Shown here piece by piece: positions 10,418 to 15,400 of a stretch of 27,639 nucleotides of DNA. The notes below the pieces were generated by a model. The model did not search any database. It was not told the origin of the DNA and was given only the letters and a program-made list of their open reading frames with translations. Source of the stretch: Candidatus Zixiibacteriota bacterium (GTDB taxonomy: Bacteria; Zixibacteria; MSB-5A5; CAIYYT01). Position numbers and translations under genes: made by a program. The stretch lies in NCBI GenBank assembly GCA_040235515.1, contig JBECKX010000149.1, forward strand, positions 1-27,639. Reading direction: 5' to 3'. Position 1 is the first letter of the stretch. Every line of letters starts with the position of its first letter.

Positions 10418-11548
10418 TTGACACCACGCTGCAGCTTCACGACTTCTATCGCATTGACTCGTGAATGCCTCAATCTATGCGCCGCAATCTGCCTCCTTAT
10501 CCTGACCATTTGTCCCACGGCTTCAGCTTTCCATGAAGGGGGAACCGCCTCCTGCCAGGCATGCCACACGATGAAAAACAGCCAGGACGGCACACCGGTC
10601 GATCCGGGAAATCCATCCGGCAACGAGTGGCTGCTCAATGGTGAGACTGCCAGCGATGTCTGTCTCTCCTGTCACTCAGATAAGTTCGGCGCAGTCCTCG
10701 GTGGTGACCCAACCAATCCGCCGCCGGAGAAGGGTGCCGGGAATTTCGTATTCCTCTTTGAAGATAATATCAATGATGCTCCGGATGGCATGACCAACCA
10801 GCTGGCGGGGCATGCCGCTGGCCACAGCATCGTCGCACCCGCCTACGGCCTCTTCCCCGATCCGGAGTGGAGTACCGCACCCGGTGGAGATTATCCAGCC
10901 GCCGACCTCGGCTGCACCAGTTGTCACGATCCACACGGCAACGGCAACTTCCGCATGCTCTATGGCGCAGGACCGATCCAGGAGGGGAGCTTCACCTTTC
11001 TTTACCCGGCTCCGACCGCCGCAGGTATCGATCTGCTGACCGGAGTCGAGTCGCAAACGAGTCATTCCGCTTATCATAATGGAATGTCACAGTGGTGTTC
11101 CAACTGTCATGGGGAGTATCACGACGCCATCTCGCTCGGCAGCTTCGAGCATCGCTTCAACCATCCTCTCTCCGCACGCTATGCCGGTGAATACAACAGC
11201 TATAACGGCACGGCAGACCCGGATGGAGGGGCTCAGGCCACCGCATACCTGCCGCAGGTTCCCTTCGAAGAACCGACCATGCAGACCTCCTCGACATCGG
11301 GACCGTTTCCCTCAAGCCGCACCAACTGTCTTACCTGTCACCGTGCGCACGCCTCCTCAGCTCCGCGCGCAACTCGCTGGGATACGAGAGTGACCACGCT
11401 CGGCCAGGATGGCGTTGTGTCCGGCTCCTATGCGCTCCCCAATCCCTACGCCGACCCCGCACAGGAACAGCTCTGCCGCAAGTGCCATGAAACCGATCCC
11501 AACGACCAGGGTCCGGTGGCCGCTCCGCTCACATCGCCATCAGATTAA
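10418..11548 (+). CDS. OmcS-like secreted hexaheme c-type cytochrome
   Basis: GGAGG RBS and TTG start. Signal peptide ending ASA-FHEGG. Six CxxCH motifs (CQACH, CLSCH, CTSCH, CSNCH, CLTCH, CRKCH). OmcS-like contexts FHxGG..CxxCHTM, SCHDPHG, GMSQWCSNCH, VPFE and CLTCHRAHAS. Confidence 0.88.
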   Translation: MTPRCSFTTSIALTRECLNLCAAICLLILTICPTASAFHEGGTASCQACHTMKNSQDGTPVDPGNPSGNEWLLNGETASDVCLSCHSDKFGAVLGGDPTNPPPEKGAGNFVFLFEDNINDAPDGMTNQLAGHAAGHSIVAPAYGLFPDPEWSTAPGGDYPAADLGCTSCHDPHGNGNFRMLYGAGPIQEGSFTFLYPAPTAAGIDLLTGVESQTSHSAYHNGMSQWCSNCHGEYHDAISLGSFEHRFNHPLSARYAGEYNSYNGTADPDGGAQATAYLPQVPFEEPTMQTSSTSGPFPSSRTNCLTCHRAHASSAPRATRWDTRVTTLGQDGVVSGSYALPNPYADPAQEQLCRKCHETDPNDQGPVAAPLTSPSD

Positions 11549-11574
11549 CATCTCCGAACCCCACCCACAGCACG

Positions 11575-11889
11575 TTAACGAAAATCCTCCCGCACCGGCT
11601 GGAACACATCGATGACATAACAGTCAGTCACAGCGCGCGCCGCGTGCGGAACATTCGACTCCAGCACGAAGTAGGAACCGGCACTCAGTCGGTGCGTCAC
11701 CCCCGCCACCTCCAGATCCATCGTGCCCGAGATCACGTTCACGATTTGCTCGTGTGGATGCGTGTGCTCAGGCACCGTCGCGTCCTTCTCCAGGGTGACG
11801 TGCGAGACTGTCATCGACTCGGAATTGATCGCACGAGCAGTGATGCCCTCGGCGAGTGTTAACATCTTCAGTTCGTTTATCGTAGCCAT
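11575..11889 (-). CDS. Cupin domain protein (Cupin_2-like)
   Basis: AGGAG RBS before ATG 11889. Metal-binding motifs PEHTHPHEQ and NVPH. C-terminal DVFQPVREDF. Confidence 0.9.
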   Translation of the reverse strand: MATINELKMLTLAEGITARAINSESMTVSHVTLEKDATVPEHTHPHEQIVNVISGTMDLEVAGVTHRLSAGSYFVLESNVPHAARAVTDCYVIDVFQPVREDFR

Positions 11890-12024
11890 AGTGCTCCTGA
11901 CTTGGAGGGCCATCTGACAGCTCTCCGGCTTAGCCCTGACGACTTTACCCTTGTAATTGAGTCCATCTCTACCGAGATTAGAATCGGGGATACCTGGATG
12001 CAAGTCAATTGGGGAGTGATGCCA

Positions 12025-12612
12025 ATGGCACATAAGTTGTGGAAAAAGGAATATCATGCGCTTCTGAACACACTGCAGCAGCAGTGGAATGCGGAGATAA
12101 GCACGCCGAAGCTGCCTGATCGGAATGTTCCCCGTGCAGTCGCATCCAGCTACTTCTTCTATCCGCGACTTCTCGCGGATATGGATACACGCAGAATCGT
12201 ACTCTCACTTAACGAAGTCCCGGCCGGCAAAGAGGTCCCGGAAACAGGCGAAGAAGACGAGTATCTGCATTTCACGGTCGTCGGGGAATTCCCGGCTACC
12301 TTCATCGTCACACACGAGAACTTCCTCTCCCGGCTTAAGAAGTTTCTTCGGATCGATCATGAATTTCAAACCGGCAATCGGCAATTCGACGACGACTACT
12401 ACTTGATCGCTTACTCCGATGCGGCTAAGGCGAAGCTGCGGGAGCCGTCGCTGCAGGGTGCGATTCGCAGTCTCGAACCCTTCGTTGCAATCGAGTTAAG
12501 GGAGAAGACAATCGAATTGTCGCGCGGTGTTGCAACTGCTAGTGACCTGCAACCGGAACCGCTCGAACAGACCTTCAAGAACCTGATCGCAATCGCAGAG
12601 CTGCTCAGCTAG
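12025..12612 (+). CDS. Hypothetical protein
   Basis: Long ORF with GGGGAG 8 nt before ATG 12025. No confident family assignment. Confidence 0.65.
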   Translation: MAHKLWKKEYHALLNTLQQQWNAEISTPKLPDRNVPRAVASSYFFYPRLLADMDTRRIVLSLNEVPAGKEVPETGEEDEYLHFTVVGEFPATFIVTHENFLSRLKKFLRIDHEFQTGNRQFDDDYYLIAYSDAAKAKLREPSLQGAIRSLEPFVAIELREKTIELSRGVATASDLQPEPLEQTFKNLIAIAELLS

Positions 12613-12629
12613 GGCATTTCAAATCCTGG

Positions 12630-13016
12630 CTACTTCGTTCCCAGACAAGCCAGCACAAACTGTCGCGATTTCGCCTCCGTCCAGGAGTGGGTCTTGCTCA
12701 GCGCGAATTCATTCGGGTTGAACTGCGCGGAATTGCTGGAACCTTGCTGCAGCGGGCCCTTCCACTTGATCGGGTACGCATTGACTCGCTTCGACACCGC
12801 CCTCACAGGTGTTCCCGACTCATTGAATAACGTGAACTTCTCCGTAATCCTCTTCAGCAGCGTCTTGCCTTCACTGATCCCTGAAAGCTTCATCACTCCG
12901 CGCGCAGCCGTGTTGATGCCAGCCTGGCCGCCGGATGCGACAGCTATGATTCTGGCGAGTGCCTCTCGCGGCGAAACCGTGGTCTTGATATGCAATTCTT
13001 GAATTTCAACTGGCAT
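12630..13016 (-). CDS. Small mosaic protein carrying contractile-injection-system-like peptide motifs (DUF5908-like N-terminus, Afp7-like and gp19-like motifs)
   Basis: AAGGA RBS. Motifs MPVEIQELHIKTTV, ITEKFTLFNESGTPVRA, NAYPIKWKGP and QFNPNEFALSKTHSW. Confidence 0.75.
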   Translation of the reverse strand: MPVEIQELHIKTTVSPREALARIIAVASGGQAGINTAARGVMKLSGISEGKTLLKRITEKFTLFNESGTPVRAVSKRVNAYPIKWKGPLQQGSSNSAQFNPNEFALSKTHSWTEAKSRQFVLACLGTK

Positions 13017-13050
13017 TCTTGATTCCTTTCAAATCTCCTGAATTCGCGAT

Positions 13051-13416
13051 TTATCGTTTGCTGCTGCCACTGCCGTATCGATAAGACTCAGCCACCTTCT
13101 GCGCCTGACTGCTCGGCATGCGCTTGCCGGTCATGCCGTCACCAAACTGAATCGTCGAGTTGCCGGCCTTGGACCTGCTGAGCTTGTAGCTGCCTCCCGG
13201 CTTCGACTTCGCAGGACCCGCATTCAGCTGGCTGAGCTGATATGCCGCCTTCAGCGCCTTCATCCCTTGCGGGGTCGTCGACAAATCCTGGATCATTCTG
13301 ACTGCCTGAGTGAATCCGGCAGGGCCGGAATTGACTAACTTCGTCAGCAGATTGTTCAGATAGCCGACGTCGGGCCCCTGAATCTTGTTCGGCCACGCGG
13401 TGTGAATAGGTGCCAT
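13051..13416 (-). CDS. Small mosaic protein carrying gp19 tube-like and baseplate J/Afp11-like peptide motifs
   Basis: Strong AGGAGGT RBS. Motifs AWPNKIQGPD and IQFGDGMTGKRMPS...YRYGSG. Confidence 0.75.
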   Translation of the reverse strand: MAPIHTAWPNKIQGPDVGYLNNLLTKLVNSGPAGFTQAVRMIQDLSTTPQGMKALKAAYQLSQLNAGPAKSKPGGSYKLSRSKAGNSTIQFGDGMTGKRMPSSQAQKVAESYRYGSGSSKR

Positions 13417-13678
13417 TTTACCTCCTCTGCGAATTTCTGTTTACAGTTATTGTCGTGCGTGGTTGCGATTAGTTCGGTGAGTGACGGAACTATTATCGAC
13501 ATTGTTGCTCTAAATAGGAAATAAAATGGCACGATCGTCGCGCGCCGCGTGCTTCCGCTGCGGCGGAGATTCCTATTGACTATGCCCCTGAACTCTATAA
13601 CTTCCTTCAATTCTGAGACTTTCCGCGAATCGGGCTCTCCGGCGATTCGCAGTTCAATATGACCGAAAGGCTTCAAAT

Positions 13679-15400
13679 ATGCTCTGGACGAAGACATACA
13701 TCCCGACCCTGCGCGAGGACCCGGCTGACGCCGTCCTGATCTCGCACAAGCTCCTGCTCCGTGGCGGCTTCATCCGTAAACTGGCGGCCGGCGTCTACAA
13801 CTACCTGCCGTTGATGCAGCGCACGCTCAACAAGACTATCAATATCGTTCGCCAGGAAATGGATCGCTCCGGCGCAATCGAGATCACCATGCCCGTTCTG
13901 CATCCCGCCGAATTGTGGCAGGAATCGGGTCGCTGGGATGTCATGGGTAAGGAGCAGATGCGGATGCAGGACCGCCACAAAAACTGGATGGTGCTCGGTG
14001 GGACTCACGAGGAAGTCGTCACCAATATCATTCGTGGCGAATTGCGCAGCTACCGGCAGCTTCCGCTCAACCTCTACCAGATCCAGGTCAAATTCCGCGA
14101 CGAAATCAGACCACGCTTCGGATTGATGCGTGGACGCGAGTTCCTGATGAAGGATGCCTATACCTTCGATACCGATCCCGAAACGCACAAAGTCGCCTAC
14201 CAGAAGATGGTTGATGCCTACTTCGCTACCTTCCAGCGCTGTGGCCTCGAAGTGCGCAAGGTGGAATCTGACACCGGCGCGATGGGCGGCACGATGGCGC
14301 ACGAGTTCATGGTGATCGTCACCACCGATGGTGGCGAGGAAGTGATCTTCTTCTGCGAGAACTGTGACTACGCCGCAAATATCGAAAAGGCTGATTCGAT
14401 CAGTACCAGCAAGGTCGAAACCGAGTCGCCCAAATTGCTGGAGAAAGTCCCGACCCCGGGCGCTGCCACTGTCGAGGAAGTCACCGCATTCCTCAAACTC
14501 CCGGCGCAACGCCTCGTAAAAACCTTGCTCTATGTCGCGGATGGCGACCCGGTTGCGGCACTGATTCGTGGCGATCGGCAGATCAATGAAATCAAGCTGA
14601 AGAACCACCTGAAGTGCAACGAACTTGAGATGGCCGATGCCGCGACTGTTGAGCGACTCACCAATGCCCCCGTTGGCTTCGCCGGCCCGATCGGACTCAA
14701 GGGCGTTAGGATCATCGCCGACCCCGAGGTCGGCGAGCTGACCAACGTCGTCGTCGGCGCCAACGAAAACGAGACGCACTACATCAACGCCAATATCGGT
14801 CGCGACTTCGAGATCAAAGAAACCGCACCGATTCGTTCAGCCGCCGAGGGCGAAATCTGCCCGAACTGCCGGAAGGGCCATTTGAAGGCACAGAAGGGCA
14901 TCGAAGTCGGCAACACCTTCAATCTCGGCTACAAATACTCCAAAGCTCTGGGCGCAACCTACAGCGATGACGAGGGCAACGAACACCACATCTACATGGG
15001 ATCCTACGGTATCGGCGTTACCCGTACGATCCAGGCAGCCGTCGAGAAGTACAATGATGACAAAGGGATCATCTGGCCGGCCCCGATCGCGCCATACAAT
15101 GTCGAAATCGTTCCGCTCTCATCGCAGGATGATGAGGTCAATAAGGCGGCGTTCGATCTCTATGAGAAGCTGAATAGGGCGGGTGTTGAAGTGCTCATGG
15201 ATGACCGGGACGAACGTGCCGGCGTCAAATTCAACGACGCCGATCTGATCGGAATCCCGCTTCGTGTCAACATCGGCAGTAAGTCGCTCAAGAATGGTGA
15301 GATCGAATTGAAGGAGCGTGCCAAATCCGAAATCGAGATGGCCTCCGTCGACTCCGCCGCAGAAACAATCAAAAAAGTCATCGACCGCCAGCTAGGGTAG
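13679..15400 (+). CDS. proS: Proline--tRNA ligase (bacterial type with insertion editing domain)
   Basis: Motifs SHKLLLRGGFIR, THEE, KFRDEIRPRFGLMRGREFLMKDAY, GIEVG, MGSYGIG and GVKFNDADLIGIP. 573 aa. Confidence 0.98.
   Translation: MLWTKTYIPTLREDPADAVLISHKLLLRGGFIRKLAAGVYNYLPLMQRTLNKTINIVRQEMDRSGAIEITMPVLHPAELWQESGRWDVMGKEQMRMQDRHKNWMVLGGTHEEVVTNIIRGELRSYRQLPLNLYQIQVKFRDEIRPRFGLMRGREFLMKDAYTFDTDPETHKVAYQKMVDAYFATFQRCGLEVRKVESDTGAMGGTMAHEFMVIVTTDGGEEVIFFCENCDYAANIEKADSISTSKVETESPKLLEKVPTPGAATVEEVTAFLKLPAQRLVKTLLYVADGDPVAALIRGDRQINEIKLKNHLKCNELEMADAATVERLTNAPVGFAGPIGLKGVRIIADPEVGELTNVVVGANENETHYINANIGRDFEIKETAPIRSAAEGEICPNCRKGHLKAQKGIEVGNTFNLGYKYSKALGATYSDDEGNEHHIYMGSYGIGVTRTIQAAVEKYNDDKGIIWPAPIAPYNVEIVPLSSQDDEVNKAAFDLYEKLNRAGVEVLMDDRDERAGVKFNDADLIGIPLRVNIGSKSLKNGEIELKERAKSEIEMASVDSAAETIKKVIDRQLG

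Follow-up and report, generated by a model that had tools for sequence, protein, structure and literature searches.

Why should a bacterium keep two small genes that look pieced together from short peptides of contractile injection systems (CIS), at a place in its chromosome where no such machine is encoded? This question is raised by two open reading frames, here called ORF A and ORF B, in a window of 27,639 nucleotides, which is the whole stretch of DNA that was analysed and which comes from an uncultured sediment bacterium. In the following, G000 denotes the genome of the window, g1 its genus (including the genome G001), g2 and g3 the sister genera, and f1 the family to which it belongs.

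The gene pair and its surroundings

The two genes have the same orientation and are separated by a gap of 34 nt:

13051..13416, minus strand: ORF A, intact open reading frame of 121 aa
12630..13016, minus strand: ORF B, intact open reading frame of 128 aa

Shine-Dalgarno-like sequences precede both start codons (GGAGG 7 nt before the ATG of ORF A, AAGGAA before the ATG of ORF B), and the first description of the locus, as two intact co-oriented frames with good ribosome-binding sites, is accurate for both. The G+C content is 0.556 for B and 0.579 for A, with 0.55 for the genome. The genes around the pair are ordinary chromosomal ones and encode prolyl-tRNA synthetase (ProRS), an SDR protein, an M48 peptidase, LemA, a multihaem cytochrome, a cupin and an unknown protein of 236 aa. 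Pfam and the annotation of the neighbourhood reveal no CIS genes in the window, as had been stated from the sequence alone for CIS and phage structural loci. Neither a prophage nor a satellite or defence island was found around A and B, PADLOC and PHROGs gave no match for either protein, Rfam none for window positions 11000-15000, and a promoter and terminator scan yielded nothing exceeding shuffles.

Two smaller observations concern the immediate neighbourhood. The listed 236-aa ORF (window 11575-12612) shares about 155 nt with the cupin ORF; because of this overlap its true start probably lies later, compare the 206-aa form in G001. The protein itself has no family match in Pfam, PADLOC or PHROGs. 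In the 5′ leader of A on the minus strand, window positions 13410-13426 and 13516-13532 are predicted to form a long-range helix of 17 bp which would sequester both the Shine-Dalgarno sequence and the start codon of A (z -3.83; 0 of 200 shuffles equally stable). The G001 leader has no comparable fold (z -0.56).

A and B are real genes under purifying selection. The ortholog of B in G001 is 53% identical (dN 0.43, dS saturated), and the neighbouring genes of G000 and G001 diverged to a like degree (cupin 52%, 236-aa protein 50% identity). For the A-like genes of G017 and G003, dN is 0.124 and dS 1.83, giving an omega of 0.068. The doubt whether the two frames are genes at all is answered by these dN/dS data. 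The pair stands beside ProRS in both g1 species, while the cupin gene and the unknown gene are together inverted between G000 and G001. Two further homologs of B are metagenomic (P0002, P0004), and all three B sequences scanned, ORF B and two others, match both CIS_tube and DUF5908. What varies in B are the short linkers; the set of motifs is identical in the four B sequences known (4/4). Given this constancy, together with the fixed place beside ProRS in both species, the earlier idea that the locus records fragments captured from encountered machines finds no support.

Motifs of four injection-machine families

Six motifs had been named from the sequence alone, two in ORF A and four in ORF B:

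13372..13398, minus strand: A aa 7-15, tube-type motif AWPNKIQGP (genome-wide pattern search; no HMM match)
13063..13152, minus strand: A aa 89-118, baseplate-J/Cis11 hairpin of the form FGDG...YRxGxG (BLASTP, TIGR02243, AF2 hairpin)
12963..13016, minus strand: B aa 1-18, strand like the N-terminus of the Cis6/DUF5908 plug (Pfam, genome scan, PDB profile, hhalign)
12801..12860, minus strand: B aa 53-72, Cis7/CIS_tube beta-hairpin motif KFTLFNESGTPVR (PF19266, BLASTP, hhalign)
12753..12782, minus strand: B aa 79-88, tube C-terminal motif NAYPIKWKGP (tube-protein alignment, genome-wide pattern search)
12663..12722, minus strand: B aa 99-118, Cis7 N-terminal strand motif FNPNEFALSKTHSWTE (BLASTP)

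The N-terminus of B had been likened to the eCIS-associated DUF5908, and residues 1-18 indeed align with positions 1-18 of the 55 positions of this model (PF19265) at 26.9 bits and E 9e-6, with a curated cut-off of 27.7; in the genome scan the score was 27.4 bits. In a PDB profile search residues 1-17 align with residues 1-17 of the AlgoCIS 'inner protein' Alg6 (chain 7aef_t, E 0.38), and hhalign aligns the N-terminus of B also with a real Cis6. The two motifs assigned to Afp7-like tube initiators were recovered at 60% identity each: aa 53-72 match residues 125-144 of Cis7 (BLASTP E 1e-6; hhalign probability 94%), and aa 99-118 match residues 32-51 over 20 aa (BLASTP E 7e-7), the Cis7 sequence used being a Cis7-like LysM tube initiator from a metagenome contig. 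The hairpin region is found by Pfam as well, since aa 51-75 match positions 119-143 of the 158 positions of CIS_tube (PF19266) at 27.3 bits, with a cut-off of 27. As the N-strand motif comes after the hairpin motif, the order of the Cis7 motifs is permuted in B.

The likeness of NAYPIKWKGP to tube proteins also holds. In a PDB profile search aa 57-108 align with CIS tube proteins of solved structure, in their C-terminal third (E 0.0014 at best), and aa 61-93, which include the motif, are 44% identical to a Cis1 tube in hhalign; the match of B to Phage_T4_gp19 (PF06841) is weak (15 bits, cut-off 28.2). For its counterpart AWPNKIQGP in A the outcome is divided. The motif has no HMM match and is absent from the homologs of A, but just two places in the genome, one in ORF A and one in ORF B, fit the pattern A[WYF]PxKxxGP (2.18 million residues in open frames of at least 100 aa). 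The FGDG motif of A, compared earlier with baseplate J/Afp11 proteins, is 53% identical over 30 aa (aa 89-118) to a TIGR02243-type baseplate protein (BLASTP E 6e-7). A itself matches positions 414-450 of the 659 positions of TIGR02243 with E 0.021 and 13.3 bits, where the cut-off is 155.8, and three A-like homologs match about positions 407-454 with E values from 1.9e-7 to 1.7e-11.

Separate segments thus match separate CIS families (Cis6, Cis7, Cis1/5 and Cis11), and the pieces, of 10-35 residues, are far below the size of the parent domains, in line with the description of fragments from about four genes that lack their parent fold. Both ORFs stand outside all of the parent families: B shows no whole-barrel tube match (about 130-160 residues) and A no match to PF19266 or PF06841 at all, B does not match the whole DUF5908 model, and A does not match a full-length baseplate J/Cis11 wedge, with no match to PF04865.

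Judged by sequence comparison, all six named motifs exceed chance, because of the matches in Pfam, TIGR02243, PDB, BLASTP and hhalign and because of the tube pattern that is unique to A and B. Chance similarity would be suggested by the shortness of the single matches and by the several scores at or below curated cut-offs. It is nevertheless highly improbable, as is the view that the ORFs are not genes, given that the significant matches come independently from Pfam, NCBIfam, PDB, BLASTP and hhalign and that the orthologs are conserved under purifying selection. By this selection, the BLASTP matches and the restriction of the tube pattern to A and B in the genome, such a reading is effectively refuted. 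The motif pattern is real and unusual; a role of A and B in injection machines is a putative one, read from these sequences.

It is useful to compare the pieces with the intact parts. The plug (Alg6/Afp6) is described as a protein of about 53 aa in which a strand is followed by a loop and by a helix that trimerises (PMC8894135), whose N-terminal strand lines the spike cavity and contacts Alg7 (PMC8894135) and without which no particles are formed; trimerisation is by the C-terminal helix (PMC8894135; PMC12546770). Like the plugs Cis6, Afp6, Alg6 and Pvc6, B begins with the N-terminal strand (its first 18 residues) and has a predicted end helix (aa 114-125); unlike them it is 128 aa long, with about 95 extra residues in between, and its end helix has no sequence match to DUF5908. 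With the Cis7 and Cis1/Cis5 tube proteins (PF19266, PF06841) three tube-fold motifs are shared by B and one by A, whereas only about 25-50 of some 150 residues are matched, the Cis7 motifs are swapped, and AF2 predicts no tube fold. In eCIS loci the genes cis5, cis6 and cis7 adjoin each other.

In G000, which is 100% complete on 218 contigs, CIS_tube and DUF5908 match ORF B only, and gp19, Baseplate_J, gp25 and eCIS_core have no match. The genome is thus without eCIS or myophage-type parts.

A shared three-helix core and its family

Between the motifs lies a further element, which the sequence-only reading had missed:

13234..13371, minus strand: A aa 16-61, shared three-helix core (hhalign, alignment A4, AF2)
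12837..12974, minus strand: B aa 15-60, shared three-helix core (hhalign, alignment A4, AF2)

When the B family is compared with the A family, hhalign gives a probability of 95% and E 2.6e-8 over 38 central columns, and by this sequence relationship A and B are paralogs with a common core of 46 residues. The core alignment (A4) comprises 14 sequences and 46 columns with no internal gap. Its hallmarks, an SGPxG turn and a TxEG turn, are present in A and in B, which score 74.8 and 65.4 bits against the profile, both being among the sequences that built it; the hhalign comparison of the two families supports the membership independently. AF2 predicts helices at residues 16-27, 31-45 and 48-60 of B (pLDDT 76-86) besides the terminal helix (114-125), with the tube-like stretch 72-106 below pLDDT 50, and helices at 16-29, 32-46 and 49-65 of A, followed by a hairpin in the FGDG region (88-92/97-101). 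These models are weak because of the very shallow alignments of 4 to 5 sequences. A Foldseek search of the B model against the PDB gave 0 matches at E <= 0.001 and generic helical repeats only, the ESM Atlas held no usable match for A or B, and PDB profile searches with the A family and with the A-prime family (see below) returned chance helical matches only. The predicted complex of A and B scored 0.00, a value that counts neither for nor against binding.

The distribution of the core was studied in 285 genomes of the class (a query at phylum level gave the same 285). The core profile matches 18 of them. In the family f1 it is found in 17 of 21 genomes when G000 is counted and in 16 of 20 without it, and elsewhere in one of 264. 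This sole match outside f1 (G152, family f7) is a protein of 93 aa that seems to consist of nothing but the core and in which no C-terminal module can be recognised.

The core is followed by C-terminal parts of at least four kinds. The commonest is the eCIS_core zincin (PF13699, formerly DUF4157), which in g2 and g3 makes up, together with the core, proteins of 128-134 aa; the paralogs of these two genera match PF13699 with E values of 9e-19 and 1.5e-18. A core match is found at the paralog locus in 3 of 4 g2 and 11 of 13 g3 genomes, the zincin itself being confirmed in 10 g3 genomes with G019 left out. The second kind is the baseplate hairpin (in A and in three of the 13 g3 genomes), the third the tube and Cis7 snippets with the plug strand (in B), and the fourth an 'A-prime' tail (G001, G009, P0014 and P0015). 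A plug-like N-terminus of A-prime was a visual impression that found no support, Pfam giving no match. For the zincin (HExxH) no PF13699 match exists in A, B, G000 or G001. The zincin-bearing sister paralogs make the A/B pair part of a protein family that is confined to one bacterial family, and the core which A and B have in common with small eCIS_core proteins makes them relatives by descent of cargo-like injection-machine proteins. In the g3 genomes G007 and G013 the gene for core and zincin lies in the same neighbourhood, not in a CIS locus, flanked by genes for a 198-aa and a 304- or 348-aa protein which by eye are LpoB-like and TolB-like.

B itself is much rarer, and within the genome set it is restricted to g1. 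An exhaustive HMMER search with the B profile through 1.84 billion representatives gave six matches at E <= 0.001, namely P0004, P0005-P0008 and P0009, among which P0004 is the one true full-length relative; P0005-P0008 are repeat proteins and were judged spurious. A word-index search with B likewise found one relative, a search of genome contigs for related loci with B alone as query found none, and in a metagenome scan nothing came up beyond the locus of the G001 type and ordinary eCIS loci. The A family comprises 7 clusters in 5.8 billion proteins.

The family can be compared with known cargo. The eCIS cargo proteins Cgo1 and Cgo2 consist of an N-terminal domain predicted to be disordered, DUF4157 and a variable C-terminal domain, the N-terminal domain being needed for loading (bioRxiv 10.64898/2026.05.27.728243). 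DUF4157 is described as a marker of eCIS and T6SS effectors (PMC8894135; PMC8213781) and as a core marker of eCIS that is linked with toxins (PMC8213781). Like these AlgoCIS proteins, the sister paralogs are composed of an N-terminal region and eCIS_core, and A and B share that N-terminal region. Unlike Cgo1 and Cgo2, however, A and B have neither a zincin nor an effector domain, their N-terminal region is predicted to fold as a bundle of three helices, and none of the genes lies in a CIS locus.

Short pieces on a helical core could also be domesticated relics. Pieces of a long-lost eCIS or prophage cluster would have been fused to the core and would today have a task that has nothing to do with injection machines, with the motifs kept solely as the small beta-sheet of A and B themselves. 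We consider this somewhat unlikely. The housekeeping surroundings and the absence of eCIS-type genes elsewhere in the genome would fit it, as would the presence of the Cis7 N-strand together with the hairpin of Cis7 in B, a self-contained mini-sheet if these two pair in the parent fold. Conservation is moreover even over core and motifs: 24 of 57 positions are invariant in the CIS-like segments of B and 24 of 71 elsewhere (p 0.36). On the other hand, five or six motifs from four gene families whose members neighbour each other in eCIS loci (cis5-cis6-cis7, cis11) would be much to retain by chance, the invariant residues of the B hairpin are those conserved in Cis7, and the sister paralogs carry a further CIS-linked domain, the eCIS_core.

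The host machine and possible roles of A and B

The sequence-only reading had suggested looking for an eCIS locus elsewhere in the genome; no eCIS-type parts are there, but a T6SS is encoded, with TssB, TssC, ClpV, VgrG, TssG, TssK and a TssF-like protein. Its locus is split over the starts of two contigs (C177:1-4700 and C108:1-6000). The start of C177 contains TssC, TssB and ClpV, the latter as two ORFs (473 and 361 aa); the start of C108 contains VgrG, cut by the contig end, a 115-aa ORF, the TssF-like protein of 585 aa, TssG and TssK. Hcp was not detected in G000; the sequence missing between the two contigs may contain its gene. The TssF-like protein is without the FGDG motif, and an origin of the FGDG region of A from this TssF of its own T6SS was rejected (hhalign probability 0.1%). 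Directly after the T6SS baseplate genes C108 encodes a DO-GTPase2-like protein of 637 aa and a GAP1-N2-like protein of 297 aa (L035:6974-9835). T6SS-like genes are widespread in f1, TIGR02243-like baseplate proteins of about 505-520 aa are found in five g3 genomes, and a true DUF5908 in two of the 284 other genomes of the set.

Since paralogs tend to remain in the same pathway and the cell encodes a T6SS, we favour, with a probability of roughly 35%, the reading that A and B are cargo- or adaptor-like proteins with a docking site on the hub of a contractile machine. A and B are selected, small cytoplasmic proteins of a lineage-restricted family built on the 46-residue three-helix core, and from their anatomy and descent we infer the following course. 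The core is probably a module inherited from cargo-like ancestors. In g1 the zincin would have been replaced by short beta-strand motifs from an eCIS-type hub (the plug strand, the strand and hairpin of the tube initiator, the C-terminal motif of the tube and the hairpin of the baseplate wedge). Layers of tube and sheath are described as stacking by intercalation of beta-loops and beta-strands (PMC12546770), and the strand motifs may dock in such a way onto the spike cavity, the tube base or the wedge. Their role would then be that of small factors resembling cargo or adaptors, perhaps also the plug, and the simplest candidate for the machine they serve is the T6SS of the host.

The layout of the sister paralogs, an N-terminal region followed by DUF4157 as in known cargo, argues for docking, and so do the motif matches, the common core, the purifying selection, the synteny with ProRS and the T6SS in the genome. 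Several findings speak against it. The motifs are of eCIS or myophage type and G000 lacks those families, the host TssF has no FGDG motif and Hcp was not detected; B is restricted to g1, whereas T6SS-like genes occur widely in the family. The N-terminal domains of known cargo are predicted to be disordered and the core of A and B to be folded. The CIS-like segments of B are, as seen above, no more conserved than the rest, and its Cis7 N-strand and hairpin could pack together and be conserved with no outside partner. If the strands do dock on a hub, A and B would be a natural small scaffold that displays assembly-interface peptides of injection machines, which bears on the way in which cargo or plug-like factors reach the spike cavity, on blocking tail assembly and on eCIS engineering.

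A partner of the motif type would be foreign, because the host does not encode these families. That its own machine does not show this type of motif favours another reading, in which A and B are dominant-negative mimics that bind to hub components of eCIS-type machines or myophage tails of foreign origin during their assembly in the cytoplasm. B may, for example, sit in the spike cavity where the plug belongs and thereby keep the tail from nucleating. As the plug is described as essential for assembly (PMC8894135, PMC12546770), a competitor for its site would be effective. The patchy spread, with homologs of A in three of 13 g3 genomes and B in g1 only, is in keeping with such interference, and blocking of tail assembly is a defence already described for Tab (PMC10884400) and Tai (PMC11364771). 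Like Tab and Tai, A and B are small proteins, and these give a precedent for proteins that stop tail assembly. Unlike A and B, which lie beside ProRS, cupin, SDR and M48 peptidase genes, Tab and Tai are described from prophages, PICIs or satellites with counter-defence genes, and their abstracts mention no mimicry of structural motifs.

We regard interference as unlikely. The neighbours are housekeeping genes (ProRS, cupin, SDR) with no prophage, satellite or defence island; PADLOC and PHROGs know neither protein; and the synteny is stable over two species with saturated dS and low dN/dS. The core is furthermore shared with small zincins that are near-universal in the bacterial family, and within the genome set true DUF5908 was found only in the two other genomes mentioned. 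It is equally doubtful whether A and B are purpose-built interface mimics, whose stable helical core would display hub-nucleating strands of eCIS and myophage tails (plug strand, tube-initiator strands, tube motif and wedge hairpin), compete at these interfaces and abort the assembly of foreign tail-like structures. If they were, they would represent a chromosomal defence by structural-peptide mimicry that is not known to have a described relative. Taken as a whole, the interpretation first given to the locus is partly supported, in that the mosaic of short pieces and the reality of the genes hold; poisoning or decoying of assembly and titration of sensors are putative roles.

Even with no function assigned, the locus shows that motifs of four neighbouring eCIS genes can be recombined, change their order and stay under selection in a genome from which the machine was lost or in which it never existed. 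Structural parts joined to another module are known from the specialised ('evolved') Hcp, VgrG and PAAR effectors, in which whole structural domains are fused to a toxin. A and B resemble these in joining structural parts to another module but differ from them in using snippets of 10-35 residues and in having no toxin. A larger combination is seen in the metagenomic protein P0009 (444 aa), in which a gp19-like C-terminal part (positions 80-133 of 134) is joined to a CIS_tube domain, and this tube-tube fusion sits behind a hydrophobic N-terminus.
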